DNA of 64,000 bases from Callorhinchus milii (Eukaryota). The first letter of the stretch is position 1. The number at the start of each line of letters is the position of its first letter. Position numbers and translations under genes: made by a program. Under the pieces are notes generated by a model. It saw nothing but the letters and a program-made list of their open reading frames with translations. It was not told the origin of the DNA and made no database searches. This document shows positions 11,059 through 61,705 of the stretch, in pieces. The stretch lies in contig NW_024704742.1 in NCBI RefSeq assembly GCF_018977255.1, positions 30,382,001-30,446,000 of the forward strand, written 5' to 3'.

Positions 11059-12449
11059 AGTAATGTGGATGAAGAAGGTGCTGTATCATATGTGAAGATG
11101 ATCAACATCACTATAAAAGCTCAGTGAACATCCACAGCCAGAGAATCAAAGACTTTGAAAGTAGAGTCGAGCAACAGGCACAACCAGTTCTTGTACTTTG
11201 CACAGTGTACCAGAATCTGACTGAACTGGAAACACGGGGCATTACAGAACCAGTTGAATTTAATCAGGGTAACACAACATAAACATGCCACACAATAATA
11301 ATCCTTGCATTTGATATAGCGCCTTATCATGTCATTGAGATGCCTCAAGGTGCTTCACAGGATATACTGTAAACTGGATTGTCCATGTTACCCTGCGTGC
11401 TGGGAGCTATATAAGTGCAGGTTGTTGTTACTCTGATACATCAACAAAGTGGGCTTTGTTCATGTGATGAGTGATTCTTTCAGAGTGCCAGCAGTCTATA
11501 CACTCTCAAGGGCACATCATAGGAGAGCCCAATTTTATCACCGCTTGGCATCCATGGACAGTCACTTTACAGCAGGCTTCAGCAGATGGGGGTCAGGAGA
11601 ATGAAACCAACTGATTGTAGTGCCTGAGATCAGCTACAGACCAGGAATGAACCCTCAGATCATCTTTGTTTCAATGGTTAAATACCTCACCACCTAATGC
11701 AATTCACTCCCCAAGCCAGCAGGAGAGACCCCATGAGATGGCTCTGTGCAGTCTGGGTTTATTTACTGAGAGTGTTGCACAGAGCCATTGATGGGTGACA
11801 GCTCACTCTATGGTCGACATATATCAAGTCTGCATTGAGCGTTAATGAGCATTACGCTAGTACATCAGTGGTATAAACTAATGAAATTGGCATTTAGTGT
11901 AGCAGTATATTACATCAAAACAGCTTACTGAGGTTCACACAATGGGTCAAAAAAATGCCATGATTTGTACCAGATTCAATCACATTGAATATGTTAAAAA
12001 ACCTAGTATTCGTTATTCCAATGAATTGCTTGACGTTATTCCAATGAATTGCAAATGGACCAGTTAATCAGCAGCAGCAACATCCCACAAACAGCAATGA
12101 GATGAATGACCAATGACCTTAATTTTTTGTGTGAGTTGGGGTATGGGAGGAAGATTGGCCAGGGCACCGAGAGAATCTCCTGCACTTTCTTGTCATATTG
12201 CTTTAGATCTTTAATCGTCTCTTTGTCCGAATCATCACAAGAGGCCAAGAGAACCTGGTTTAATGTCTTACCCAAAGAATTGGAGCTCTAACAATGCAGC
12301 TCTCCTTCAGTGTTGTATTGGAGTGTCAGCTTGCTTTGGAGCTCAAGTTCTGTTGTGAAACTCAAATTTTCTGCTCAAACTTACTAACCATAAGAATATC
12401 ACATTTTAGTCATCCGTATCCTCAGTGGGTTTTACTGTGATTAATTATA

Positions 12450-12690
12450 AACAAAATGCAAAATACTACAGATGCTGGAAATCTGAAACAAAAACAGAAG
12501 TCGTTGGGAAAACTCAGCAGGTCAGGCAGCATCGATGGAGAAAGAAAAGTGAGTCAACGTTTCGGGTCCACAACCCTTCCTCAGAACCGTTCTGACGAAG
12601 GGTCGTGGACCCAAAACATTGACTCACTTTCCTTTCTCCATAGATGCTGCTTGACCTGCTGAGTTTTCCCAGCGACTTCTGTTTTTATTT
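12450..12690. mobile_element. Penelope terminal-repeat-derived palindrome (long) with hammerhead motifs
   Basis: ~102-bp inverted arms 12486-12587 and 12589-12690; the right arm matches 41182-41283. Confidence 0.85.
12552..12588 (-). ncRNA. Minimal type I hammerhead ribozyme motif (Penelope-associated)
   Basis: GGUU-CUGAGGA-A-GGGUU(gug)GACCC-GAAA-C-GUU^-GACU: CUGANGA and GAAA boxes, stem II, palindromic AACGUU stem III and a short stem I. Confidence 0.65.
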
Positions 12691-14769
12691 ACTGTGAATT
12701 ATGTTCTACTATTAAGTAAATCCTTTAAACTATTTGAGATGGAGTTTCTGAGGTCCTTTGATCTAATCTTTTGTAAAAAATAACAGAAGTAAATATTAAC
12801 CTAATGTTGATATTCACACATCGCTATACCGGTATCATATTTTCTTCAGGTGTGTATGACTTGGTAGATGTCTACTGAATTAAACAGTGCAATGTTGTTC
12901 AACCAACAAGGAATTAACAAAATATGGATCAGGAAGCTGCAGCAGGACAAATGGTTCATGTTTGATGTGCCATAGTTGTAAAGGAAAATTCAATGGATTA
13001 GCTGTGCTGCAAACCATATTGTACTCACATGTATTGATGTGAAAGCACCAAGCAACAAACATAGCGTAACCAAGAGAAACATGCAAACCTGGGCAGCAGG
13101 AGGAACACAAATTATACCTTTACACTGCGCTGCCCTTCAATAACCTCCCTCATTGCTCAGAGAAAAGTCTGTGATCTAAGAATCTGCAGGAGCCCCACTG
13201 GTAAAGAGTAATATCAGCCAGAAACAAGTTGATGAATAGTTGACAACTGTAAAATATTTGTTTTTATTTAAGCATCCCAATCGGAATGTTTCAATTTTAA
13301 TCATCGATATGTGTTGTTGCCGGGACCAACAAAATAACAAGCAGACTGGTTTTTCAACATTCTACACAAGGAAACAAACTTGCTGGAAGGAAGAAGCATT
13401 TCTGATAAAGGGTGAGGTTCAGGGCAAACTTTTTATAACAGCCTTCAAAATCAGCATGTGTTTATTTCACTTTGGGCACTGTACTGCGCTGTGAAGGCGA
13501 TGCCAGTTACATCACAAGATTTATCACGAGGCGGCAATTGAGTCAGCGTGATGATAGCATTTTCGGTTATTCTGCAGTATATTGGTGTAGGGGGGAAGAA
13601 ACATGGGAGTATTTCAGGCTGGAACAACGGATGTAGATGTGGGAGTGTTCCCCTGTTCCCTCACATTAAGAAGCATTATTATTACTGTTCTGTAACTATT
13701 CTACAGAGATCTGCACAACTTATACTGTTTCCCTTACAATATTTGCGCCATCCTTTGGATGAGAACATAAACCAAGGTTTGTCTGTCTGTTCAGGTGGAC
13801 GTTAAAGATCCCATGGCACTATTCAAAAAAGCAAAGGAAGTTTCTCCTGTTATCCTGGCCAACAATCCCGCAAATAAAATTGGTCATTCACTCCATGGCT
13901 GTTTGTGGGACATTGCTGTGTGCAAATCCTCTGCCGCATTTGCCCACAAAATACAGCATATCTTGTGAGGTCCTTTGAGGTGTCACCACAGCGTGAAAAG
14001 GCACTATATCAAATGCAAAGATTATTATATTTATTTAAGCTGTAAAGTGAAGTGAATTGCTGTAAAGTGAAGTATTTGTAGGTGAGAATTCAGTTGTTTC
14101 CCCTGCTTCCCAGTATTCTTTCCCCTGGGTCTCTGCAGCCATTGTTTAGAGACTGAAGTTCCTTTCCCAGCAGTATATGGTGCCAACTGAACACAGAGGC
14201 GATGTGTGTGAAGTCAGCCTGGCTCAGTTGGTAGCACGTGGGTTCAACAATAATAATAATAATCCTTGCATTTGATATAGGTAAGGTCAGAGGCGGTAGT
14301 GGAGGAAAGCTGTCCTGGTTATGGACTGAATGTGGGGTAGGAAGGACACCGGAGGTACAAAGATGTTGACTGGAACCAACAAGTATGGCTTCCATCTGAT
14401 CAACATTCAGCTACAGAAAGTTGAGACTCATCCAGCCCTTCATGTCTAATACGACATATGCTGTTATCTTTGCAGTGTTCCAGTTTCACATGGAGGGGTA
14501 CATGTGTGATAAATCAACTGAGTAAATACATGGAACTTGATCCAATTCTTGTAAAATTCATGGCCAAATCAATATTGAAATGTTTTAACTTACCTAGGAC
14601 CGCACAGCGTGTTGCAAGGTGGGCAAAATGTGAAAGGTTCAAATGGTGTTGTAAATCATAGTAACCATTGTATTTGATCCAGGGTCTTTTCACAGTGTTT
14701 CACAGAATGGACTGTAATGTGCAGTGACTGTGTATTTTGTGGGTGAAAACAGCAGCCAATTTGCGCACA

Positions 14770-20089: not shown

Positions 20090-21916
20090 ATCAAAATTCC
20101 AAAATCAAGGGAATTCGCTCCATGGTCACTTCCCCTCCAACATCCACCCACACCGCACCCCCACCCTCCGACTCCTACCCATCCTCCCCTACACATTTTC
20201 GTACCCGTTTTCCCATCCTCTGTCACCAAACTCATCCTGTCCCTGAAACCCACCACCTGCTCCCTTGACCCCATCCCCACTCCACTCCTTATCTCCCAGC
20301 TCCACCTCCTTGCCCCACATATCACAAACATCGTCAACCTGTCCCTCTCCTCTGGCTCTGTTCCCATTCCCTTAAAAACTGCCACCATCACTCCCACCTT
20401 AAAAAACCCTCCCTTGATGCGTCACAGCTATCAAGCTACCGGCCCATCTCCAACCTCCCCTTCCTGTCCAAGGTCCTGGAACGAGCTGTCGCCTCCCAGC
20501 TGCGCTCTTTCCTCTCTATCCATTCATTATTCGAACCCCTTCAGTCGGGTTTCCGTGCTGCCCATAGCACAGAAACTGACCTGGTCAAGGTCACCAATGA
20601 CATCCTGACCATCTGCGACCAGGGCTCCCTCTGCCTCCTCGTCCTCCTCGACCTATCGGCAGCATTCGATACAGTCGACCATGCTATCCTCCTCCACCGC
20701 TTGTCCTCCCACCGCAACATTCAAGGCCCTGTCCTTCAGTGGTTTAGGTCGTACCTCTCCCACCGTCTTCACTTTGTTTCCACGAATGGCTTTTCCTCCA
20801 CCCCCCGCACTGTCTTGTGCGGTGTCCCTCAGGGCTCTGTCCTCGGTCCCCTCCTCTTCACCCTCTATATGCTCCCCCTTGGTGACAACAGCCGCAGACA
20901 TGGGGTCAACTTCCACATGTATGCGGATGACACCCAACTCTACCTTTCCTCCTGTACCCTCAACTCCACGACCACCGATGTCCTGACAGCCTACCTGTCC
21001 GACATCGAGTCCTGGACGAGAGACAACTTTCTTCAGCTCAACGTGCGTAAAACTGAGGCCCTCCTGATTGGCTCACGTCAGCGCCTCCGCACCTCAGGCT
21101 CTGACAGCATCAGCATCCAAGGCTGCACTCTCCACCTCTCAAAGCCGGTCAGGAACCTCGGCGTTCTGTTCGACCCTGAGCTGTCCTTTCTCCCTCATAT
21201 CCGCGCCACAACTGGCACCGCCTTCCATCACCTCCGGAATATCGCCAGACTACGGCACTACCTCACCCCTCACGCTGCTGAAACTCTGGTCCACGCCTTT
21301 ATCACCTCAAGGCTGGACTACGGGAACTCTCTCCTCGTCGGCCTTCCCGGCACCTCCCTCCACAAGCTGCAGATGATTCAGAACTCTGCAGCTCGTGTAC
21401 TGTCCCGCACCAGGCTTCGCGACCACATCACTCCCACCCTCGCTCGCCTCCACTGGCTCCCCATCCCCCAGAGGATCGAATTCAAGATCCTCATCCTCAC
21501 CTACAAGGCCATTCACGGCCTCGCTCCCTCCTACCTCTCTGACCTACTATCCCCCTACCTACCTTCCCGTACTCTCCGTTCCTCTGGCTCTGGTCTGCTC
21601 CACATCCCCCGCCCCAACCGCCCTACCATCGGTGGCCGGGCCTTCAGCCTCTCAGCCCCTAGGCTCTGGAACTCTATCCCCCAGTGCCTTCGCCGCCTCC
21701 TCCCTTTCCTCCTTCAAAGCCGGTCTCAAGACCTTTCTCTTTGACCGTGCCTTCAGCTCCCCTCTCGACTCTCTACCCCCTCCTCGCTCCCTCCCTTCCC
21801 TCCCCTCACCCTGACCATTTCCCCCCTGCTCGGGTGCTGACCCAACTGTCCAGCGCCTTGGGACGTCCTCCCGACGTGAAAGGCGCTCTATAAATGGAAT
21901 CTTGTTGTTGTTGTTT
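20090..21916 (+). mobile_element. 5'-truncated L2-clade LINE (RT domain, 3' UTR, (TTG)n tail)
   Basis: [53 protein letters not shown] and LHWLPI motifs; frameshift near 20400; 3' hairpin and ttgttg tail. Confidence 0.93.
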
Positions 21917-26305: not shown

Positions 26306-27110
26306 AACAACAACAACAACAAGATTGCATTTATAGAGCGCCTTTCACGTCAGGACGTCCCAAGGCACTGGATAGTTGAGTCGGGACCCGAGCAGGGGGG
26401 AAATGGTCAGGGTGAGGGGAGGGAAGGGAGGGAGCGAGGAGGGGGTACAGAGTCGAGAGAGGAGGTGAAGGTACGGTTGAAGAGAAAGGTCTTGAGACCG
26501 GCCTTGAAGGAAGAAAGGGAGGAGGCGGCGAAGGCACTGGGGGATGGAGTTCCAGAGCCTAGGGGCTGAGAGGCTGAAAGCCCGGCCACCGTTGGTAAGG
26601 CGGTTAGGTCGGGGGATGTGGAGCAGACCAGAGCCAGAGGAACGGAGGGTACGGGCAGGTAAGTAGGGGGATAGTAGGTCGGAGAGGTAGGAGGGAGCAA
26701 GGACGTGAATAGCCTTGTAGGTGAGGATGAGGATCTTGAATTCGATCCTCTGGGGGATGGGGAGCCAGTGGAGGCGAGCGAGGGTGGGAGTGATGTGGTC
26801 CCGAAGCCTGGTGCGGGACAGTACACGAGCTGCAGAGTTCTGAATGACCTGCAGCTTGTGGAGGGAGGTGCTGGGAAGGCCGGCGAGGAGAGAGTTTCCA
26901 TAGTCCAGACTTGAGGTGATAAAGGAGTGGACCAGTGTTTCAGCAGCGTGAGGGGTGAGGTAGAGCCGTAGTCTGGCGATGTTCCGGAGGTGGTGGAAGG
27001 CGGTGCCAGTTGTGGTGCGGATGTGGGGAAGAAAGGACAGCTCAGGGTCGAACAGAACACCGAGGTTCCTGATTGGCTTTGAGAGGTGGAGAATGCAGCC
27101 TTGGATGCAG
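26306..27110 (-). mobile_element. L2 LINE 3' fragment, same subfamily as 20090-21916
   Basis: ORF 26345-27127 is nearly identical to the C-terminal part of ORF 20701-21744; (CAA)n tail at 26306. Confidence 0.92.
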
Positions 27111-30100
27111 CTTGGATTCAAATACACAAGACCAACAGCATTGGCAGACTGACCGCTTAATTTTATATAAAATGGAACGAACTATAGAAAAAAAACAGGG
27201 GCATGTCAAGCAACCTGGGAGAAAGGCTCACTAGGGAGAAAGCAATGAGGCTGATCTACATGGCTGTTGGACAGATACTACACATGGAAAGAACACATCT
27301 GCTTATGGTTCATTCAATAGGTCTACTAGTAAAGGTTATGTATTGTAAAGAAAGACACCGAAGTACTGGGTCCAACAATTATAATCAACTCAAAGTCCAC
27401 TAGCAATAGTGAAACATGTATTTTAGAACTGTATAAGTGAGCAGTAATACAACTTTAAGGCATTGTGCAATTAAATTAGCATCTTCAAGTTAGGAGAGGA
27501 CAAAAATGGGTGGAGAGGGGGCTGGGGGTGGAATTAAATATTAAACCATCGCTCTGGTCAGGTGGATGGTAAGGATCCCATGGTACTATTCGCAAAAAGA
27601 AGGGAGTTTCTCCTAGTGTCCTGGGCAACAATACTCCAGATAAAACTGTTCTTTAATTTCATGGCTGTTTGTTGGACATTGCTGTGTGTAAATTAGCTGT
27701 TTCATTTGTCTACAAATGTAGTCAATTCATTTTTACACCAATAAGCGCTTTGGGGTATTTTGATGTTATAGGCTCTGAATCAAATAAAAGATTATTGGCA
27801 CTTTTACAGCAGTATTTTAGACGGGTAAAATAAAGGTGTTAATTTTTGTACATAATAAACTTGGTTGAGGATGATCAGCTTCCATGTTTTCAGAGGGGAA
27901 TAAGGAGAGGAAGTGAAAGTTAATGATGTGGTCCCATGAAACAGATAGCAAATGTGGGTAAGATTTAAAAGATACTTTGTGACCACGAATGCGAGAGTAA
28001 CCAGGTTTGATTCCCAGGTGGGGCAAAAGCAAGTTTCCTTACTTCACACACCACAGTTTACCTAACAGGAAATAGGAACCCGACTGTTAGTCAATTGGTG
28101 GATCACTTTCCGGGGGTAATAATCCCTCAAAAAAAAATTTAGTCACTGAATCTACGACTGTTTGTGGGACACTGCTGTGTGCAATTGGCTGCGGCATTTC
28201 ATCCACAAAATACAGTCAATTCACTTTACAATATACTGTGTGAAGTGCTTTGAGACTCAATATCAAATGCAAGGATTATTATTGTTATTAATAAGAAGAA
28301 TTGAAGTGCTATAATTAAATGCTCAAATTATTATTAATATTATTATTAATATTATTATTATAAAAATACTCCCCCACTCTTGTTCCTGAGAGCGGATCTG
28401 GTCTTAAAACAGCTTGAAATTTACGCCAGATCTCTGATACGCATCTCATGCTCTTTCCCAAAGGGAAATAATTACTTGGGGAGGACAAGTTTGCAGGGCT
28501 ACGGGGAGAGCACGGGGGAGTGGGATTGATTTGGATAGCTCTTTTCAAAGAGCTGGCACAGACGCGGTGGGCCGAATGGCTTCCTTCTGTGCTGTAGAAT
28601 TCTACGATTCTATGATATAATAATAATAATCCTTGCATTTGATATAGCGCTTTTCATGTCTTCTCGACATCTCAAAGCACTTCACAGGATATGCTGCAAA
28701 GTGAATTGACCATATATTTGTGGACGGAACACAGCAGCCAATTGCGCACAGCAACATCCCACAAACAGTCGTGGATTGAAAAATATAAATATTCTTAAAG
28801 GCAAGACGAGTGTGCATGTGTTTATTCTACTTGATTCTGCAATGCACTGGAAATAATATTAATAATCCATTTAAGGAGGGGGAGACATCAGCTCTCAGCA
28901 TCTCCTGCTCTGATATCTGCAGCCCACAAACTATACACAGCCTCACCCATTTCCAGTATAAAAGTTTAAAATAATGTGTTCACTCAATCCAAGACTGTTT
29001 ATGGATGTTGCTGTGCGCAATTGGCTACTACGTTTCTCCCACAAAATACACAGTCAATCCACTTTACAATGTAATCTGTGAAGCACTTTTGAGACGTCTC
29101 ATCGACGTGATAAGGCGCTTTATCAAATGTAAGGATTATTATCATGTAAAACCCTTTGAGAAGTCTAGGTGACATGATAAGACTATATCAAATGTAAGGA
29201 TTATAATTTTATTATTATTGTTATACTTGCTTCCTGAAAATAGTGTCTGACATTTCCAGTGGATGATTCAAATCTATCAAATCTTCTGCTAGTCTCAAAC
29301 GCTTGTCTTATTTAATTGGATCACAAGTTCAAACTTCCTTCCTGTGGTTGGAGATGCTCCGATTCCTGACATGATTTTATTTGAAGACATGTGACATTGC
29401 TGTATGTTCCTTATTACCATCTCGTTCCTTATAGCTTTATGCAATGTTATCCACTTTCCCAAGGTTAACGGCTGGATTTCCTGCCAATTCTGGTGGGTTT
29501 ACTTTCTGTGAAGACTTAACCTTGTTTAACAAAGGAAAATCTACAAAGGCTATAGACAATAAATAAGCTTTGCATTTGACATAGCGCACTATCATGTCAT
29601 CGAGACATCTCAAAGCACATGACAGGATATCCTGTAAAGTGCAGCCAATTTGAACACAGCAATGGCTCACAAACAGCTGAAGAGGGAGTAACCAATTTTA
29701 TTTGGTCCAGGGGTTAGATCTCCCTACTCTTTTTAAATAGTGCTCTGGGATCCAATGTCTACCTGGACAGCCATACAGGACCTCGGTTTTAGGTCTCATC
29801 ATGAAGGACCATGCAGTGCTTCCCCAGGACTGCATTGGAATGTCAACCTAGATTATATGGATTTCAAGTCCTGACGTGAGGCTTCAAACCACAACCTTTT
29901 GACTCAGAGACAATAATGCTATCAACTGAGCTAGGCTTGTTTAAACAAAAATATTTCACGCCAGCCTCCCATTGCTTGCCATAGATCAACCCAGGCCAGA
30001 AATGGTCCTTGAAAAAGCAACCCAGTTATATAAATGGATGAAAACTAAAACAAACAAACCAGCTGAAGCTGATTGAATTGAAGCAAAATACACACAGCCA

Positions 30101-30774: not shown

Positions 30775-31150
30775 AACAAAAACAGAAGTCGCTGGGAACA
30801 CTCAGCAGGTCAGGCAGCATCTATGGAGAAAGGAAAGTGAGTCAACATTTCGGGTCCACGACACTTCGTCAGAACTGGGGCATGTTGGGAGGGAGCGGCT
30901 TTTAAGGGCTAACAGGGAAGAGGGAGGCAGGACAAGGAAGACAAAGGAGAAAATGGGGTAGAGGACAGGGGATGATGGGTTAAAGAGGTATTAATGATGC
31001 AGAACAAAGGGGGTGGGTTTGCAAAAAAGCGGGGGAATAGAGGTGTTAATACTGCAGAACAAAACGGGTGGGGGTGGGGGGAGGAAAAGAACTTGTGACA
31101 AAACAGGCAGATAAGGGAGAGAAAAGGTGTGTCTGGGACCAAGATGATGT
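30775..31150 (-). mobile_element. Solo Penelope 3' terminal repeat with hammerhead motif at 30840-30876
   Basis: Reverse complement of about 40925-41283; contains AGUU-CUGACGA-...-GAAA-U-GUU-GACU. Confidence 0.8.
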
Positions 31151-32113
31151 GGTTGGCAAGAGCCAAGGCTGGGGGCACCCAGAGTGTGCGTTGGGTACAA
31201 GCAGACTAGTTGGGTAGTTTTGCTTTTTTCTGACCAGCAAAAATCACGCAGGTTTTCATTGCAAGGACTGCCGAGCAACCTTTCCACTCTTATAGTCCAA
31301 GCAGGATCAAAACTCATCACTGAAATCATTGGAGACAACTGCACTGTTGGGCAATAAATCTATACAACAGAAGGTGGCTCAACCTGATCATCTCTGTAAT
31401 TTACTGGACATTTCCACTGCAGAATGCGATAAAGCAACATTTGAGATACAGATTTGCACGTCTTAAATCAGAATATTCCTGGAATACAGTAAAACATTTC
31501 TGTTACAAATTGTAAAATGTTACCCATTGCAGTGCAAAGGATTCCGTGGTGGATTCTATGAATTCTGGACCTTGACAGGTCAGCTCCACTTATCTGGATT
31601 CCAGCATCTGCAGTATTTTGTGTTTTGTCCACTTATCTGTCACTCTGTATATTCAGCCGCAAGACAAGGATATTAAAAATCATTACGAAATCGGGAGGCA
31701 AGCAGGATATTGTGATTTCCTTGGAGCTGTGTTGGCTCCAATGTGACATACTTGACAGTGAAATATCAGAATCAAGCCAACCCTCTGTGGCAGTCTCGGT
31801 TGTCCATTAACTGAACCAGACGAATCCTCAGTACTACAGAATACTGCTGCTGACAGACCAGCCAGCCGGGCTCATTGGTAGGACTTAGACCACTGACCAG
31901 GGGCAGGATTCCTTCCCACTCAGTCCCACTGGAATGCCATAACCCAAAAGGATGAGATTGTTCAAGCTGAACAAGCAGTGGGAAGCTTGCTTTCAACAGC
32001 AAGCTATGTGATTTTAGATGATTAAACTCCAGTGGTACCCCCAACACACAAACTGTGGTCCCCAAGCCTTGTACTTCACCAACCTGCACCTAATGCTCTC
32101 TGTAGTTAGGTAA

Positions 32114-36475: not shown

Positions 36476-37957
36476 CAACAACAACAAAATTACATTTATA
36501 GAGCGCCTTTCACATCAGGAGGATGTGTCTGCGTCCCAAAGCGCTGAACAGTCAGGTGTCAGAGCCCGAGCATGAGAGAGGAGTGGTTTAGGGGTGAGGA
36601 AAGGCAGAGAGGTGGGAGGGAGACCAAAGGCACGGTCGAAGAGAAGGGTCTTGAGACCGGCCTTGAAGGAGGCACGGGAGGAAGCGAGGTGAAGGGAGTG
36701 TGGGATGCAGTTCCAGAGTGTGGGGGCAGAGTGACTGAAGGCCCGGCCACCGATGGTAGGGCGGGTCGGGCAGGAATCATGGAGCAGGCCGGAGCCCGCT
36801 GAACGGAGTGAGCGGGCAGGTTGGTAGGGAGTCAGCAGGTCAGAGAGGTAGGAGGGGGCAAGGCCATGGATGGCCATGAAGGTGAGGATGAGGATCTTGA
36901 ACTCAATCCTCTGGGGGATGGGGAGCCAGTGGAGTCGGGCGAAGATGGAAGTGATGGAGTCACGGAGTCTGGTGCGAGAGTACACAAGCTGCAGAGTTTT
37001 GGATGATCTGCAGTTTGTGAAGGGAAAAGTTCGGAAGGTCGGTGAGGAGGGAGTTCCCGTAATCGAGCCTTGATGTGACGAATGTGTGGCTGAGGGTTTG
37101 GCAGCCTGAGGGGTGAGGCAGTGGCAGAGTCTGGCAATGTTACGGAGGTGGTGGTAGGCAATGCCAGTCATGGCGCGGATGTGGGGGAGAAAGGACAGTT
37201 CATGGTGGAGTCCTGTAGCTCAGTGGTTAGAGCACTCGCTTTGCAAGCGAGAGACCTGAGTTCAATTCCAGGCAGAGGGCGAAACCTTGGGCAAGTTTCC
37301 TTACTCCACACAGAGCCTAATAATAATCCCTCCAAAACCAAAAACAATAATAAATTGGTCAGTTTCAATCTACGACTGTTTGTGGGACATTGCTGTGCGC
37401 AATTGACTGCCGCGTTTGCCCACAAATATACAGTCAGTTCACTTTACAGTGTATTCTGTGAAGCGCTTTGGGACGTCCTCCCGACGTGAAAAGCGCTATA
37501 TCAAATGCAAGGATTATTATTATTATTATTAAACAAGACACCCAGGTTCCTGACTGGCTTAGTGAGGTTGAGTGTACAGCCGTGGAGGCTGATGCTGCCA
37601 GCGCCTGAGGTGCGGAGGCGCTGGCGCGAGCCAATCAGGAGGGCCTCGGTCTTGCTGACGTTGAGTTGGAGAAAGTTGGCCCTCATCCAGGACTTGATGT
37701 CAGACAGGCAGTCGGTCAGGACCTCAGTAGTCCTGGAGTTCAGGGTGGAGGCAGAGAGATAGAGTTGGGTGCCATCCGCATACATGTGGAAATTTACCCC
37801 ATGTCTGCGGATGATGTCACCAAGGGGGAGCATGTAGAGGGTGAAGAGGAGGGGACCGAGGACAGAGCCCTGAGGAACACCGCACAAGACGGTGCGGGGA
37901 CTGGAGGAAAAGCCGTTTGCCGCGACGAAGTGGAGGCGGTGTGAAAGGTAGGACCTG
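36476..37957 (-). mobile_element. L2 LINE fragment interrupted by a SINE and itself inserted in a CR1 tail
   Basis: [21 protein letters not shown] and [19 protein letters not shown] at 37205-37530; CR1 tail resumes at about 37958. Confidence 0.9.
37205..37530 (+). mobile_element. tRNA-derived SINE, short family (internally deleted variant), L2-type tail with (ATT)n
   Basis: A box TAGCTCAGTGG, B box GAGTTCAATTCC, Deu-like core ctgtttgtgggacattgctgtgcgcaatt, tail gcgctttgggacgtcctcccgacgtgaaaagcgc. Confidence 0.88.
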
Positions 37958-39489
37958 AATGGGCCTGTTTCTGTGCTGTATATTCTAATGTATTCTAACG
38001 TAGATAATTATTTTGGGCGGACAAATTTGCAATGACTATGGGGAGAGAGCAGGGGAATGGGATTGATTTGGGTAGCTCTTTTGAGAGACCCGGCACGGAC
38101 ACGATGGGCCAAATGGCCTCCTTCTGTGCTGTATAATTCTATGATTCTATGAGGTTTTGTTAACAAAGGAACTGAAGTAATGAGAGTGGGTTGGTGCCCT
38201 CTTCAGCCTATTAAATGGAATAGCAATCAATGTAACACAAGAACGGTGCAGCCGTAATGTAACAGCAAAATGCTCGATACAGAACTATAATCAGTTTGTG
38301 GATGTTTGGTAATTGCCTGAAATGTGCATCGATTGCTAATGGCTACAGATTAAGCGATACAGTGAAATGAGCACTTTATCGTGACCGATGGCGTACTTGC
38401 AATTCTCCCTTCAATTATTCTGAAAACATTAACAAGTATGGAGTGGCTGCATTGCACTTTGCTGGCGTCAATTCACTCCATTTAAGAAGCAACCAATCCA
38501 TTGTTACACAATACATACCCAGAGTGGTTTCAAACAAATGACAGATTGAATAGAACAATGGACTGGATACTTAAAATCACCTACGAGATGACTGCTGGTG
38601 CTGCACTGGGAACTGGTGACAGGCAGGTCAAACTGGGGAGTGATGCTGCCTGTCAACTCATTCCATCACATTGATGCCTCCCATTGCTGGGGACAGGCGG
38701 GAAGCAGGTAGGAAAGAAAATAAGGCTAAGGCTATCTTGCTAGGGCTGACAAACCACTTGAAGGACGTAATCCCCTGACACAGTGCTCCATGATGCAAAC
38801 TGTATACTGGAGGGAAGCCAAAAGGGAGAAATTCTGAAGTAATTCTTTCTTTTTCACTCTGATATCTTCCATGTATTGAGTACAGGTGTCATCGTGGTTG
38901 AGTTGGGAGCTCTCTTTCTTGCCTCTGAGTCAAAAGTGGTTGGGGGGGTCCAAACGCCACATCAGGACTTCGTGCTCTAGGCAGACAATTCATTGCAACC
39001 CAGAGAAGCACTGTATTGTCAGAGGTGCTGTCCTTTGGATGAGACATTAACCCAAGGTCCTATCTGCTTGCCTTGAAAGAGCCAAAACACTATTCAAAGA
39101 GAGAAGAGAATTTCTCTGGTGTCCTGACCAACAATCCTCCAGATAAAATTGCTCATTCATTCAGGACAGTTTGTGGTACACCGCTGTGCAAAGGTTGGCT
39201 GCCGTGTTTACACACAAGACACACTCTACGATATGATAATAATAATCTTTGCATTTGATATATGGTCTCATTGTGTAGTTGAGACATATCAAAGCACTTC
39301 ACAGGATATATTGTAAAGTGGATTGACTGCATTTTATATCACATGAAGCACTTTCAAACGTTCTCTAGATGTGAAAGGCTCTACACGAAGTGTAAGATTA
39401 TTACTATAGAGGATGTCAATTGGAGCTGAGTGGCTCTTTTACAAGCTAAGTAACCAATACAGATTGGAACCTACATTAGTTTACCCACC

Positions 39490-41285
39490 TACATCCGTGA
39501 CTCTTCTGACGCTCTCCGCCACTTCAACAATTTCCAGTTCCCTGGCCCTGACCATCTCCTATTTACAATGGACATTCAGTCCCTCTACACCTCCATCCCC
39601 CACAAGGACAGCCTGCAGGCCCTCTGTTTCCACCTCGAACAGCAGCCTAACCAATCTCCATCCACGAAGACCCTTCTCTGCCTGGCTGAACTTGTTCTGA
39701 CATTGAACAACTTCACCTTCAACTCCAACCACTTCCTCCAAGTAAAAGATGTCGCTATGGGAACCCATGTGGGTTGTTGGCCACCTGGAACACTCTTTGT
39801 TCCGGGCCTACTCAGGTCCGCTCCCTGACCTGTTCCTCAGATATATTGACGACTGCGTTGGGTCTGCTTCCTGCTCTCACAGTGAGCTGTAAAAATTTAC
39901 CAATTTTGCTTCCACCTTCCACCCCTCCATAACATTCACATGATCCATTTCCGACCCTTCCCTTCCTCAACTTCACCATCTCGGGGCATAGATTATCCAT
40001 AGATATCTTTTACAAGCCCACCAACACCCACAGTTACCTGGACTACACCTCCTCCCACCCCACCTCCTGTAAAGACTCCATTCCCTTTTCCCAGTTCCAC
40101 TGTATCTGCTCTGACGATGCCACCTTTCACGCCAGAGCAGCTGAAATGTTTTCCTTTTTCCTCGACCGAGGATTCCCATCCACTGTAGTAGGCAGGGCCC
40201 TTGACCATGTCCGCCCTATTTCCTACACTCTGCTCTCACCCCTCCCCCCTCTTCCCAGAACCATGATAGGGTCCCTCAAGTCCTCACCTTCCACCCAACC
40301 AGCCTGAACATCCAACAAATAATTCTCTGCCATTACTGGCATCTCCAGTGTGATCCAACCACTAAACATATCTTTCCCTCCCTCCCAGGATTCCGAAGGG
40401 ACCGTTCTCTCCGTAATTTCCTGGCTCATTCCTTCATTATCACCAACATTTGCTCTCCTCCCCCCAGTGCCTTCCCATGCCAGCACAGGTGATGCAATAC
40501 CTGCCCTTTCACCTCCTCTCATACCACTGCCCAGGGCCCCAAACACAGTTTTCAAGAGACAGTGATTTCCGTGCATTACCACTAATGTAGTTTACTGCCT
40601 TCGCTGCTCATGATGTGGTCTCCTCTACATTGGGGAGACGAAACGCAGATTGGGTGACAGATTTGCCGAACACCTCCATTCTGTCCACACACACACCCCT
40701 GAGCTTCCGGTCTCTTGCCACTTCAACTCTCCCTCCCACTTGCACTCTGACCTCTCCATCCTCGGGCTCCTACCTGCTCCAATGAGCCACAGCGCAAGCT
40801 CGAGGAACAGCACTTCATCTATCTGCTAGGGACCTTACAGCCCTCTGGTCTCAATATTGATTTCAACAATTTCAGACCATAATAGCTCACCTTCCCTCTC
40901 CCCCTCTTCTGTGACCTTTACCCCATCATCTGGGTCCCAGACACACCTTTTCTCTCTCTGGTCCGCCTATTTTGTTGGAAATATCCCCCCCCACCACCCC
41001 ACTGTTTTGCATTATTAACACCTCCATTCTCCTGTTTTGTTGCAATTCCCCCCTTTTGTTTTGCATCATTAACTCCTCTTTAACCCATTACCCCCTGTCC
41101 TCTACCCCATTTTCTCCTTTGTCTCTCTGCCTCGCCCCTCCCTGTTAGCTCTTAAAAGCCTCTCCCTTCCAAGATGCCCCAGTTTTGATGAAGGGTCGTG
41201 GACCTAAAACGTTGACTCACTTTCCTTTCTCCACAGATGCTGCCTGACCTGCTGAGTGTTCCCAGCGACTTCTGTTTTTGTTACA
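39490..41285 (+). mobile_element. Decayed Penelope-like retroelement (Neptune-type): RT, GIY-YIG endonuclease and 3' terminal repeat
   Basis: RT motifs MDIQSLYTSIPH, VAMGT and RYIDDC; Cys-rich linker FPC....CNTC near 40470-40505; endonuclease VVYCLRCS*CGLLYIGETKRRLGDRFAEH. Multiple stops and frameshifts. Confidence 0.88.
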
Positions 41286-41904
41286 GACTAGAACCTTGTA
41301 GCGTTATCACTAAAAGGAAGGCAAAAACATCCTTTCCTGACTCCCCTGGTTAAAAGCTGAGCTTTTCTTTTTTGTGGTGCACCTAAAAACATTGTGGGTG
41401 GCGACTTTCCTCTGCAAAATGGTTCTGCGAGTATTTTTCTGCACACAAAGATGTTTGAGGGAATGAAATGGAGGCTTGAGATGCTGAACAGGCAGTCAGC
41501 AGCCAGTCTTAAAAGGTATACAGCTCTGCTTTTTGCGCAACACTCTTTGTAGGCACAGATAGACTAATGCACCTGCAATGCTAACACGGGAAAACTGCAA
41601 ATCCTGGAAATGCACAACTGATCAATCAGCACCTGAAATAGAGGATTGGCAGCTGATTTACTGTCTGTAGATTTCCAGCATTTCCCATCCACGTACATTA
41701 TACACATTTCAAACAATCGTATAAGAACATTGCTGAAGTTCTGGTGATGGAGTGTGTTACAGCCTTGTAATGAAGGTGTTCAGATGACATGCAGTGTATC
41801 ATAGCCTTGTAATGAAGATGATTTGATGATATTGATGGAGTGTGTTACTGTCTTGCAATTAACAATGACAGCAGAATGGGATGGAAGACAAAGAGCCCAC
41901 TTAC

Positions 41905-57635: not shown

Positions 57636-59546
57636 CTGGGATGGGGGAAAACACAAAGGCAATTAGAGTCAGAAATGAGAATTCAGCACACCAGGGTTAG
57701 TAACATAGTTAACACGGTAACGGGGACTAAAAGTCCACATTCAGTTTTGCAGCTTCAAGCTAAATTTACGAGTTAAAATTAATTAGGCTTCAAAACCTCA
57801 AAAGCTCCTGCTCATCTGCTAACAACAGGTGCACTGTTATTTGCCTTCGGGTCTGTAACATCTATTTACAGTATTTTCAACAATATGTGAAAGATGAAAG
57901 TATCTTTCCAAAATACTCACTCAACCATCCTTCCTATATATAACACTTTGCATTTATCTGTATCACTCTACATGACAAAGGGCAACTTCTAAATAAATGC
58001 ACATTTCCTTCTCTATTTTTCCCCCCTTCAACTGTAACAATAGTTTTGCCCGTTTTAGGTGATAGTTCAGATAGCCATGTTTTGTGTCTGGTTGACAGTG
58101 CAGTCTTGTGTGTTGGCTGGTTCTTCTGTGCATGCCAGCCTGGGTGAAAGATTAGTGTCATCTTGGGAAAGAAATGCTGTTGGAACGACACTCTCTATTT
58201 GCGTGTCAGCACTCATAACCCTACACTGTGTGCCATCGTCCTCAAACAAGCCCTTCTATTCATGGGCACCACTGACCCTGTGCTACCAGGTCAACATTAA
58301 TGAGCCGATTTGAACAAGTTGCGAGTTTGCTTTCATGTCAGTGACTATCAGCTTCTTTAGTGTCTGGGGAAAAAGTGGCTTCATATGGTTTACAAAGAAC
58401 ACTTCCTTCCAGGGTTGGTGACTTTAATATAATTTTTTCTTAATTCATCAATTAGAATTAAAAGTGTATTAAGCCCTATGATTATTGGGATATCTGCTTA
58501 ACAGTTTACATTTATATAACGCCTTTCACATCGGGAGGATGACTCAAAGCTGGTCACAAATCTGGTTCAGACTCACTGGTCATCTGAATCTTATTGGTGA
58601 TTCTTGTTTACCAGTCAATGTAAATGCAGTATTGTACAAACTGAGTCATTCCTGAACAGAATAATAATAACCCTTGCATTTGATATAATGCCTTATCATG
58701 TCTTCAAGACTTTCCAAAGCTCTTCACAAAATATACTCTAAGTGAATTGACTGTATATTCTGTGAAGCGCTTTGAGACATCTTGAAGACGTGATAAGGCG
58801 CTATATCAACAACAACAACAAGATTCCATTTATTGAGCGCCTTTCACGTCGGGAGGACGTCCCAAGGCGCTGGACGTCCCAAGGCGCTGAAAAATGCAAG
58901 GATTATTATTATAATATATATTATTTGTGGGCGAGTGTGTTGTATTAATATGTGTTGTGGATTGTATTGCAAAATTTGTGGACATTTCACCCAAAGATAT
59001 TCGCAGCTAAGAGGGCATCTTTAATGCAAAGAATCCAGTATGTCACTATCTCATGTTAAACCTCAGTATGCTGCTTGTGTGGTGGTGCAACATCAATTGC
59101 GTCAGGAAAGACAAGACTGATAGGCCTCAGGTTCACTTACACCACATCACAGCATAGGTCTACAATATGGCATGTTAATAATGTCCCCTTATCTACTTGG
59201 CAGCCTGACACACACATCATGAACCACTGCAAATGGTGGGGAAAATAGGCTGCATTGCTTGAGTCCTGGACAATCACATCTACCCTGTGCAATGCACCAT
59301 GAAAGCAATAGTACTGCATCATAGTCAGATTTGTGCAAGCTGATGTTTACCATACAAATGCACTGGGAAGCTTTAATAGAAGTTCACACAATTGAACAGG
59401 AAAGGCTGCGGAAGATTAGACTGGTCTAGAGGAAGCTCCAGTGGAGCTTATTGCAGATATACTAAACATTTTAGAAAATTTCATCTGCATTGTCATTGGT
59501 AAGAGTAAAAGTCCCAACACCTGCAGTAACACACAATTTAATCGGG

Positions 59547-61306
59547 CAGCCTGGCTCAGTGTGTCAGCCTGGCTCAGTGTACCAGCCTGGCTCAGTGTAC
59601 CAGCCTGGCTCAGTGTACCAGCCTGGCTCAGTGTACCAGCCTGGCTCAGTGTACCAGCCTGGCTCAGTGTACCAGCCTGGCTCAGTGTGTCAGCCTGGCT
59701 CAGTGTACCAGCCTGGCTCAGTGTGTCAGCCTGGCTCAGTGTACCAGCCTGGCTCAGTGTACCAGCCTGGCTCAGTGTGTCAGCCTGGCTCAGTGTACCA
59801 GCCTGGCTCAGTGTACCAGCCTGGCTCAGTGTACCAGCCTGGCTCAGTGTGTCAGCCTGGCTCAGTGTACCAGCCTGGCTCAGTGTGTCAGCCTGGCTCA
59901 GTGTGTCAGCCTGGCTCAGTGTGTCAGCCTGGCTCAGTGTACCAGCCTGGCTCAGTGTACCAGCCTGGCTCAGTGTACCAGCCTGGCTCAGTGTGTCAGC
60001 CTGGCTCAGTGTACCAGCCTGGCTCAGTGTGTCAGCCTGGCTCAGTGTGTCAGCCTGGCTCAGTGTGTCAGCCTGGCTCATTGTACCAGCCTGGCTCAGT
60101 GTGTCAGCCTGGCTCAGTGTGTCAGCCTGGCTCAGTGTGTCAGCCTGGCTCATTGTACCAGCCTGGCTCAGTGTACCAGCCTGGCTCAGTGTACCAGCCT
60201 GGCTCAGTGTGTCAGCCTGGCTCAGTGTGTCAGCCTGGCTCAGTGTACCAGCCTGGCTCAGTGTACCAGCCTGGCTCAGTGTGTCAGCCTGGCTCAGTGT
60301 ACCAGCCTGGCTCAGTGTGTCAGCCTGGCTCAGTGTGTCAGCCTGGCTCAGTGTGTCAGCCTGGCTCAGTGTACCAGCCTGGCTCAGTGTGTCAGCCTGG
60401 CTCAGTGTGTCAGCCTGGCTCAGTGTGTTAGCCTGGCTCAGTGTGTCAGCCTGGCTCAGTGTACCAGCCTGGCTCAGTGTGTCAGCCTGGCTCAGTGTAC
60501 CAGCCTGGCTCAGTGTGTCAGCCTGGCTCAGTGTGTCAGCCTGGCTCAGTGTATCAGCCTGGCTCAGTGTGTCAGCCTGGCTCAGTGTACCAGCCTGGCT
60601 CAGTGTACCAGCCTGGCTCAATGTAATAGCCTGGCTCAATGTACCAGCCTGGCTCAGTGTACCAGCCTGGCTCAGTGTACCAGCCTGGCTCAGTGTGTCA
60701 GCCTGGCTCAGTGTGTCAGCCTGGCTCAGTGTACCAGCCTGGCTCAATGTACCAGCCTGGCTCAGTGTGTCAGCCTGGCTCAGTATATCAGCTTGTCTCA
60801 GTGTGTCAGCCTGGCTCAGTGTGTCAGCCTGGCTCAGTATATCAGCTTGTCTCAGTGTACCAGCCTGGCTCAGTGTGTCAACCTGGCTCAGTGTACCAGC
60901 CTGGCTCAGTGTGTCAGCCTGGCTCAGTGTGTCAGCCTGGCTCAGTATACCAGCCTGGCTCAATGTACCAGCCTGGCTCAGTGTGTCAGCCTGGCTCAGT
61001 GTACCAGCCTGGCTCAGTGTGTCAGCCTGGCTCAGTATATCAGCCTGGCTCAGTGTGTCAGCCTGGCTCAGTGTGTCAGCCTGGCTCAGTGTACCAGCCT
61101 GGCTCAGTGTGTCAGCCTGGCTCAGTGTGTTAGCCTGGCTCAGTGTGTCAGCCTGGCTCAGTGTGTCAGCCTGGCTCAGTGTACCTGCCTGGCTCAGTGT
61201 ACCAGCCTGGCTCAGTGTACCAGCCTGGCTCAGTGTACCAGCCTGGCTCAGTGTGTCAGCCTGGCTCAGTATATCAGCTTGTCTCAGTGTGTCAGCCTGG
61301 CTCAGT
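59547..61306. repeat. 18-bp minisatellite, about 98 units (CAGCCTGGCTCAGTGT[AC/GT])
   Basis: Directly visible tandem array of 1760 bp with two main interspersed variants. Confidence 0.98.
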
Positions 61307-61705
61307 TGATAGTACTCTATCCTTTGAGTCAGAAGGTTGTAGGTTCAAGACTCATGTCAGGTTTTTGAACTCATGTAGTGCAAGTAGACAATCCAATGCA
61401 CTGCTGGGGCTGTGCTGTATTGTTGGAGGTGCCGATCTTTGGATGAAATATTAAACTGACTGCCTGTTTAGGTAGACGTTACAGATAGCATAGCACAATT
61501 CGATAAGAGAAGGCAGTTTCTCACAGTGTCCCGGCCAACATTCCTTCAAATAAATTGGTCATTCACTTCAGTGACTGTTTGTGGGACATTGCTGTGTGCA
61601 AATTGCCTGCTGCATTCTTCTACCAAATACACAGTCACTAACACTCTAAAGTAAATCCTGTGAAGTGCGTTGAGATGCTTCCAGTACAATATCAAATAGC
61701 AGATT
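61291..61705 (+). mobile_element. DeuSINE-like SINE, long family
   Basis: Head gtcagcctggctcagttgatag..gagtcagaaggttgtaggttcaag, then ggaggtgccgatctttggatga.., gtgtcccggccaac and ctgtttgtgggacattgctgtg. Related copies at about 12060-12390 (-), 13750-14030, 15120-15785 (-, split), 22095-22380, 27555-27795, 29560-29935 (-), 38890-39230, 46030-46345 and 55370-55625. Confidence 0.8.

Follow-up and report, generated by a model that had tools for sequence, protein, structure and literature searches.

The hammerhead-like motif on the minus strand of the window (the whole 64-kb stretch of the Callorhinchus milii genome that was analysed) is in all likelihood a neutrally decaying copy of a dimer-type minimal type I hammerhead from the 3' end of a Penelope-like element (PLE) family, which lies inside a head-to-head double insertion and does not self-cleave in the INPP4B pre-mRNA. 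Its kind is already known as the PLE minimal hammerhead, and the example in the window is an ordinary transposon remnant, a dead copy. For INPP4B, the motif is most likely without importance, and ribozyme action on its pre-mRNA is not to be carried forward unless RNA evidence speaks for it. The C. milii genome is a convenient case for studying what hammerheads do for PLEs. Insertions of its old family run into the hundreds and can be counted, with readable ends; alongside it stands a second family whose frames are open over 825 residues, whose units of ~3 kb lie in tandem and whose hammerhead folds well.

The hammerhead motif and its copies in the window

The first-pass annotation had read the minus strand from 12588 to 12552 as GGUU CUGAGGA A GGGUU GUG GACCC GAAA CG UU GACU, and this reading is exact. 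The motif is composed of the following parts (all positions are those of the window).

12552-12588, minus strand: hammerhead-like motif, in the order stem I, CUGAGGA, extra A, stem II, GAAA, CG, UU, stem I
12584-12578, minus strand: CUGAGGA box
12577, minus strand: unpaired extra A
12576-12564, minus strand: stem II GGGUU/GACCC, 5 bp including one U.G pair, with loop GUG
12563-12560, minus strand: GAAA box
12559-12558, minus strand: CG, within the palindromic ACGU at 12560-12557
12557-12556, minus strand: UU, with the putative cleavage between 12556 and 12555
12555-12552, minus strand: GACU, the 3' strand of stem I

The stretch AACGUU is self-complementary, and the cleavage triplet is GUU, which contains the required U-H dinucleotide. 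Stem I (GGUU/GACU) is weak, with four pairs (G.U, G-C, U-A and U.G), two of which are wobble pairs; the G that opens it (12588) joins the two arms of the palindrome described below and lies outside the element, and other copies have AGUU here.

The assignment of the motif to minimal type I hammerheads of the PLE kind is borne out by its features, which match those reported by Cervera and De la Pena 2014 (PMC4209133). The metazoan PLE minimal hammerhead ribozyme (min-HHR) is described in that paper as having no real helix III, palindromic positions 15.2-16.2, a short helix I, a longer helix II, an unpaired base between A9 and G10.1 and a conserved G10.1-C11.1 pair. The window motif has the same boxes, the extra base, the G10.1-C11.1 pair and the palindromic ACGU, as well as a helix I of 4 bp, a helix II of 5 bp and a helix III that could form only via a dimer. 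The vertebrates named in the text of PMC4209133 are fishes, coelacanth, Xenopus and reptiles, cartilaginous fish not being among those named.

The catalytic boxes of the window motif are also common to the Rfam hammerhead families. An Rfam search returned no hammerhead family, whether the whole window was scored at gathering or the interval 12300-12900 at E <= 10. At E <= 10, the Rfam hammerhead models likewise had no match for a fully kept copy of the family (L019) or for a hammerhead of the second family (L115). Since these two are also unmatched, the blank is taken as a limit of the models, which are apparently blind to motifs without a helix III.

When up to three mismatches are allowed, the 37-mer has a single match in the 64-kb window, with 0 expected from shuffles. 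The loose pattern CTGANGA..GAAA..TH has 15 matches in the window, a number also attained in 10 of 100 shuffles (8.27 +/- 4.96 expected); the catalytic boxes alone are at chance level, and the excess over chance is membership of a repeat family. Only 12552-12588 and 30840-30876 among the loose-pattern matches have proper stems, and they are mutually homologous. As the annotation had it, there are four copies in the window and 12552-12588 is the best kept, each of the three others being broken or mismatched. These copies, together with a further fragment pair of the same family, are as follows.

12589-12625, plus strand: hammerhead of the palindrome partner, with GAAA changed to AAAA and CG to CA
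30840-30876, minus strand: third copy, with intact boxes, 4 of 5 stem II pairs and UG at 15.2/16.2
41182-41218, plus strand: fourth copy, broken, with TTGATGA and TAAAA
2309-2445, no strand assigned: tail-only head-to-head fragment pair of the motif's PLE family, without a hammerhead part

The Penelope-like element family

A strict form of the motif, in which N7 and two CpG positions were left free, has 499 matches (262 + 237) in the 991.5-Mb genome vs 0 for a reversed control, which rules out a chance match as the origin of the motif. The motif is one of at least 499 family copies and no gene-specific element.

The layout of the family is RT - GIY-YIG endonuclease (EN) - UTR of ~300 nt - hammerhead - tail of 100 to 140 nt, and the order EN-UTR-hammerhead-tail is collinear at 17 distinct loci (35 were examined, including three duplicate pairs). 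No upstream terminal repeat was found within 1.5 kb of the RT motif at 20 RT-anchored loci, and among six further upstream pieces (three of them at the wrong end of the locus) that of L087 was the sole match; a search for the N-terminus then revealed the upstream block. The UTR-hammerhead-tail block also stands before the N-terminal ORF in the long copies L094, L103 and L106, while in L108 the upstream block begins inside the hammerhead and has no UTR match. The presence of hammerhead-tail blocks on either side of the ORF is the pseudo-LTR layout. The number of candidates declines from 3' to 5' (at least 1576 for EN, at least 303 for RT and at least 54 for the N-terminus), which is the usual gradient of 5' truncation. 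Two further pieces of the family in the window carry the third and fourth hammerhead copies.

39454-41287, plus strand: degraded 5'-truncated PLE copy, the short tail of which ends at 41287
39454-40307, plus strand: RT fragments of the degraded copy
40614-40829, plus strand: GIY-YIG endonuclease remnant GLLYIGETKRRLGDRFAEH of the degraded copy
up to and including 41182-41218, plus strand: UTR of ~300 nt of the degraded copy, followed by its broken hammerhead (41182-41218)
30775-31153, minus strand: 3' end of a 5'-truncated PLE, with 3' UTR, hammerhead (30840-30876) and short tail

Pfam gave no match at E <= 0.01 on the RT pieces of the window. The GIY-YIG domain was weak (E 0.3 in the window remnant and 0.0094 in L025), as was RVT_1 on degraded copies (down to E 1.6e-5, in L061), every Pfam match on degraded ORFs of the family being under the curated cut-off. 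As the ORF pieces of the window are too degraded for Pfam, domain assignment drew on better copies and database homologues. The 358-residue open frame of L058 has 124 protein matches of 628-2000 residues at E <= 0.001; among the 120 of these 124 that were listed, most are of ~650-950 residues and most have RVT_1, some also with GIY-YIG on record, and both RVT_1 and GIY-YIG were confirmed in one homologue (P0009). The combination of RT with a GIY-YIG nuclease at the C-terminus defines endonuclease-bearing PLEs (PMC8557442, PMC4209133). According to PMC4209133, PLE hammerheads are mostly single, with some close pairs on opposite strands. As in the elements of that paper, the hammerhead of the C. 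milii family is housed in a terminal repeat, the element coding for RT and GIY-YIG, and its hammerheads are likewise mostly single, with some opposite-strand pairs.

A head-to-head double insertion

The window motif belongs to an insertion of 242 bp (12446-12687) that consists of two hammerhead+tail units placed head to head and joined at the hammerhead 5' edge.

12431-12445, plus strand: left copy of the target-site duplication, TTTACTGTGATTAAT
12446-12587, minus strand: sense arm of 142 nt, hammerhead and PLE 3' end in its 'long tail' form, which starts with GTT, 3 nt before CTGA
12588, no strand assigned: junction base, part of neither arm
12589-12687, plus strand: second arm of 99 nt, 'short tail' form with a broken hammerhead, antisense of the hammerhead in the INPP4B transcript
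12688-12702, plus strand: right copy of the target-site duplication, TTTACTGTGAATTAT

The left and right copies of the 15-bp target duplication are identical at 13/15 positions. Measured as an inverted repeat, the arms (12486-12587 and 12589-12690) are 102 nt each, 91% complementary and one base apart, and one arm extends ~40 nt beyond the other.

Such structures recur in the genome. The junction TCAGAAC (0-4 nt) GTTCTGA is found at no fewer than 40 places vs 0 for the control. In a set of 30 copies chosen by the strict motif alone (L001-L010 and L026-L045), an inverted partner stands immediately upstream, or close by upstream, of 12, with varying truncation points; nine of these were counted by a simple script, and L009, L028 and L040 were added by eye. 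Long-armed inverted pairs are present at the RT/EN-anchored loci L013, L019, L024, L047, L057, L059, L064 and L065. The palindrome is a regular product of insertion by this PLE family.

Craig et al. 2021 (PMC8557442, citing Evgen'ev and Arkhipova 2005) describe, as PLE features, inverted copies truncated at the 5' end and, on one side only, a tail of 30-40 bp. The window insert resembles the PLE insertions of that paper, as a 5'-truncated copy in inverted orientation borders on the 5' end, the tail is one-sided and truncation is heavy, but it differs in its very short arms (99 and 142 nt), which meet at the hammerhead 5' edge.

PAc, a Poseidon-type PLE of Anolis carolinensis, is presented in PMC11167929 as the source of the only PLE enzyme studied in vitro. 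This enzyme cleaves and extends both DNA strands, and its reverse transcription starts at two adjacent internal sites, which explains the tail. An enzyme that cut and extended both strands would also yield head-to-head pairs in the C. milii family. The pair in the window may thus have arisen from a single retrotransposition event with priming on both cleaved DNA strands, as by the PAc enzyme in vitro; such an event would fit because the short- and long-tailed arms share one target duplication. Two nested or successive insertions would leave a similar picture.

Decay and covariation

Fetched loci contained 88 distinct matches to the hammerhead region, from which 25 pattern-chosen copies, 20 copies truncated at or inside the motif and one duplicate were dropped. 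This left 42 copies for alignment, 39 of them outside the window's palindrome and copy B. Among these 39 unselected copies, the CUGANGA box is present in 26 and the GAAA box in 28, and both boxes are present in 19. Both boxes together with U-H are kept in 17 copies, a stem II with 5/5 pairs in addition in 10 and the palindromic CG as well, which amounts to all features, in 7. The G10.1-C11.1 pair, which is G12576-C12564 in the window copy, occurs in 40 cells as GC 27 times, as GU 8 times and as AU twice, and the palindromic CG is kept in 23/42 aligned copies. Most substitutions among the hammerheads of the family are CpG transitions. The motif of the C. milii family is rather uniform, with changes mostly at CpG, whereas PMC4209133 stresses high heterogeneity. 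By this comparison, the window copy appears to be unselected and decaying neutrally, with nothing special about it.

Covariation was absent from the 42-row alignment, in which the pairs hardly vary. Helix positions were paired in 90.1% of cells vs 90.2 +/- 0.4% after shuffling (319/500 shuffles were as high), the covariation score was 0.133 vs 0.129 (149/500 shuffles reached it), and 2 pairs had changed on both sides vs 2.3 expected. The within-family test has little power, since the pairs hardly vary and the copies represent one decaying lineage.

Position in INPP4B

Mapping of database proteins onto the window placed the following INPP4B exons.

24577-24461, minus strand: further INPP4B exon
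17264-17109, minus strand: catalytic exon (CKSAKDRT), transcribed before the motif
5939-5808, minus strand: last coding exon, with the final 44 residues, transcribed after the motif

The stop-free minus-strand frame with CKSAKDRT contains 52 residues that are 100% identical to C. milii records of type II inositol 3,4-bisphosphate 4-phosphatase. As the minus-strand exons 17264-17109 and 5939-5808 flank the motif, it lies in sense orientation in the 11.2-kb last INPP4B intron. Exon mapping, which placed one terminal exon, thereby agrees with the first-pass annotation in that the motif is sense to INPP4B and lies between the catalytic exon and the last coding exon. The PLE end at 30775-31153, which holds the third copy, is likewise sense in an INPP4B intron, different from that of the motif.

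Folding and the question of cleavage

The MFE fold of the isolated 37-mer is the hammerhead (-6.6 kcal/mol), with a z of +0.52 and 140/200 shuffles as stable. The 205-nt palindrome has a predicted MFE of -172.4 kcal/mol, and thermodynamic prediction gives both stem I and stem II a pair probability of 0 in contexts of 205, 401 and 601 nt. As the antisense arm is transcribed first, the hammerhead strand meets its complement while emerging. Moreover, because the palindrome partner lies on the other DNA strand, the transcript carries the antisense of the hammerhead and no second hammerhead nearby; the nearest sense-strand copy (30840-30876), with its one stem II mismatch, belongs to another intron and lies 18 kb upstream. 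In the INPP4B pre-mRNA, the insert would be expected to fold as a ~100-bp hairpin without self-cleavage. What remains of the earlier suggestion that the motif might structure the pre-mRNA is trivial, namely a long inverted-repeat hairpin.

That the inverted repeat itself matters, its ~100-bp intronic dsRNA serving as a substrate for A-to-I editing or small RNAs and so influencing INPP4B processing, is improbable. A near-perfect 102-bp hairpin is predicted, and the only Rfam matches are weak ones to hairpin-shaped models of miRNA precursors, but the best scores (32.1 bits for MIR2118 vs a gathering threshold of 85; 29.2 for mir-7883 vs 50) are far under gathering and reflect shape alone. In addition, 40 or more like palindromes are scattered through the genome as by-products of insertion, and the arms decay independently.

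Still less credence can be given to a working ribozyme by which the INPP4B pre-mRNA is cut, or through cutting regulated, ahead of its terminal exon; the annotation had put forward that the motif could cleave the pre-mRNA. All core and stem features are intact in an intronic motif on the sense strand, the isolated sequence folds as a hammerhead, and the sense copy at 30840-30876, the boxes of which are intact, could in principle supply the helix III pairing. However, the -172 kcal/mol hairpin is predicted to lock the motif and exclude both hammerhead stems, and helix III needs two molecules or two copies, the sole sense partner being the distant one in the other intron. Published single min-HHRs are also inactive: in PMC4209133, no cleavage in vitro was seen for a lone S. 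mansoni min-HHR, and dimers and trimers cleaved weakly (dimer cleavage is also the subject of Lunse, Weinberg and Breaker 2017, as cited in PMC6765202). Finally, the motif is one of at least 499 copies in neutral decay, all features being intact in only 7/39, and within-family covariation is absent, on pairs that hardly vary. Given the predicted folds, the window motif is probably not a working INPP4B ribozyme; some residual activity of this copy may persist, as every sequence feature of the min-HHR is kept.

Continuity of the palindrome

Short-read contigs of four runs, with even depth on the unique flanks, did not bridge the centre of the palindrome, although flank contigs enter both arms, reaching as far as 12479 on one side and starting from 12661 on the other. 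With no contig bridging the centre, the case for a continuous palindrome is carried by the assembly, by arms that diverge by 9% and by the 40 or more like junctions. The arms mismatch at 9/102 positions, three of which are CpG transitions, and have 6 and 5 differences from a well-kept copy. As the arms diverge both from each other and from that copy, the insertion is old and no false duplication made by the assembler. An assembly artefact, in which a false inverted duplication conceals what is really one 5'-truncated PLE end, is accordingly very improbable: the unbridged centre and the known trouble that tandem and inverted PLE structures give to assemblies (PMC8557442) would favour it, but the arms differ in sequence and in tail length, the 15-bp duplication encloses the entire insertion, the flank contigs reach into either arm, and the junction is common to forty places in the genome.

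The 5' edge of the hammerhead

As judged by eye, 20/30 of the pattern-selected copies start 2-5 nt before CUGA (with TT, GTT, AGTT or CAGTT), 1/30 starts 10 nt before CUGA and 9/30 continue into the UTR. A cruder script rule gave 22/30 with <10 matching bases, of which L004 and L008 were judged to be misclassified. Thirteen short copies have no abutting inverted partner (these include L009 and L028, in which the inverted partner sits behind a spacer), and in 6 of the 13 an exact word of 9-14 nt, as expected of a target duplication, is common to the upstream flank and the sequence directly after the tail. Five of these shared words were matched by 0/200 shuffles and one by 2/200. The short copies are discrete insertions with their 5' end at the hammerhead edge, and each of them runs uncut through the point of cleavage. 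That the recurrent 5' end (the GUU before CUGA) might be another hammerhead cleavage site was considered and rejected, as helices III and I could not be drawn on inspection.

A TTAAAAG-like (TATA-like) word stands 32-33 nt before CUGA in 26/42 copies that keep upstream sequence; several more carry the word and were left out of this count, since their CUGA is mutated. The word is 30 nt upstream of the recurrent start, and the sequence of this start, CCAGTTC, is initiator-like. On the simplest reading, the element RNA would start at the hammerhead edge, with the A/G of CCAGTTCTGA, which TTAAAAG precedes by 30 nt, as its first base.

It is possible, if rather doubtful, that the hammerhead 5' edge corresponds to the RNA 5' end, that the 100-140-bp units represent complete cDNAs from internal RT starts, that the palindromes result from priming on both strands, and that the hammerhead is a 5'-terminal structure (for enzyme binding, for example) or a passenger. 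Because the point of cleavage is crossed uncut in every short copy, template processing would on this reading be no role of the hammerhead, which leaves such a terminal structure or a passenger. In Drosophila virilis, too, Penelope transcription is reported to start close to the motif, 46 nt before a 75-nt intron (PMC2377424), the end of which coincides with helix I (PMC4209133). The 5'-end pattern is not stated in the PLE papers compared here, which is no claim that it is unpublished.

Comparison with known systems

For PAc, insertion is described as independent of hammerhead cleavage, with no RNA-seq reads ending at the hammerhead site (PMC11167929). The C. milii family is similar to PAc in that the hammerhead lies just before the ORF region and inserted copies cross the cleavage site uncut. 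Its genomic 3' end also lies ~100-140 nt past the hammerhead and has two lengths, which fits the two internal RT start sites reported for PAc (PMC11167929). The two elements differ in the start of the ORF, which in PAc is inside the hammerhead (PMC11167929), whereas the first ORF homology in the C. milii family is found ~110 nt past the long tail.

The window units also resemble non-LTR retrozymes (PMC7229834; bioRxiv 10.64898/2026.07.22.740005) in being short, non-autonomous units with type I hammerheads that are related to PLE pLTRs. Retrozymes are described in these sources as direct tandem repeats, for which circular RNAs are possible, whereas no direct tandem hammerhead units were found in the 64-kb window, where the copies are single or inverted only.

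A second family

A second PLE family, found via a search with a distant PLE protein, has stop-free frames of up to 825 residues. Its units are 2993-2996 bp apart on one contig (C1063), forming a tandem array of ~3-kb units, and similar loci are present on other small contigs. In L115, one 1-kb piece between ORFs, a hammerhead precedes by ~110 nt an ATG from which an open frame extends through the rest of the piece. This hammerhead reads UUUUCAC CUGAGGA C GGCUGC-loop-GUGGCC GAAA CG UC GUGAGAA, with a GUC site. The boxes, the extra base, the G10.1-C11.1 pair and the ACGU palindrome are the same as in the window motif, and helices I and II are wholly different.

The first-pass annotation had named a lack of covariation of stems I and II across genomic copies of the terminal repeat as a refutation. 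By this criterion, the absence of covariation within the family speaks against function, although the test is weak there; between the two PLE families, which share one architecture with different helices, compensatory changes are seen. The between-family change of helices agrees with the between-family covariation described in the literature and, with two families only, serves as an illustration without statistics. The L115 hammerhead folds into both helices at -19.3 kcal/mol, with a z of -2.61 and 1/200 shuffles as good.

5′ ends and junctions of the main-family copies

Among 30 copies of the main family, a degraded Penelope-like element (loci L001-L010 and L026-L045), 20 share a 5′ start lying 2-5 nt ahead of the CUGA box, and the window copy, a head-to-head hammerhead palindrome in an INPP4B intron, has the same start in both arms:

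12587 and 12589, inner ends of the head-to-head arms

The recurrent starts adjoin a target duplication in several main-family copies and have a conserved TTAAAAG 30 nt upstream. They suggest that the 5′ end of the main-family RNA lies at the hammerhead edge and that the templates were uncleaved at the hammerhead site. The same edge is perhaps also the transcription start.

In at least 40 genomic places, two units, each comprising the hammerhead and its tail, are joined head-to-head at one common point and are separated by 0-4 bases. Examples include:

C1:36445851, head-to-head junction
C1:38707634, head-to-head junction

Contig C15 has four such junctions (712983, 752564, 782004 and 815749), whose identity to one another and spacing of 29-40 kb point to a segmental repeat. 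The window also contains a shorter palindrome of the main family:

2309-2445, tail-only palindrome, arms of approximately 40-85 nt, short spacer, without the hammerhead

This palindrome, which has the tail part alone, shows that the inverted partner of main-family copies can be truncated at any point.

A diverged main-family copy at locus L070 (692-745, minus strand) has A10.1-U11.1 in place of G-C, with both sides changed, as well as further changes in stems I and II. An A-U at this pair occupies one other cell of the main-family alignment.

A second Penelope-like family

The second family has stop-free frames open for up to 825 residues on contig C1063 and other small contigs, and its tandem units are spaced 2993-2996 bp apart (C1063 matches at 2186, 5182, 8175 and 11169). 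A 1-kb inter-ORF piece (L115) was read and contains:

L115:497-549, minus strand, minimal hammerhead

This motif has a helix I of 7-8 bp, a helix II of 6-7 bp and a GUC site, and its predicted fold is good (-19.3 kcal/mol, z -2.61). The word TATATATA lies approximately 65 nt upstream, and an ATG approximately 110 nt downstream. The second family may be a live element.

Other repeats in the window

The INPP4B introns in the window consist for the most part of retroelement debris, including fragments of one non-LTR (LINE-type) reverse transcriptase family:

20269-21744, plus strand, fragment (RVT_1, E 1.1e-34)
26345-27181, minus strand, fragment
36515-37219, minus strand, fragment
37501-38007, minus strand, fragment

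Two partial tRNA matches, both above the Rfam gathering score with the model ends missing, are probably the heads of tRNA-derived SINEs:

37213-37275, plus strand, 43.5 bits
50045-50099, plus strand, 38.8 bits

Both adjoin retroelement ORF debris. The tandem array of approximately 1.9 kb at 59416-61368, in which several frames are open on both strands and read as 6-residue repeats of the GTLSQA/DTLSQA type, is a minisatellite within an INPP4B intron.
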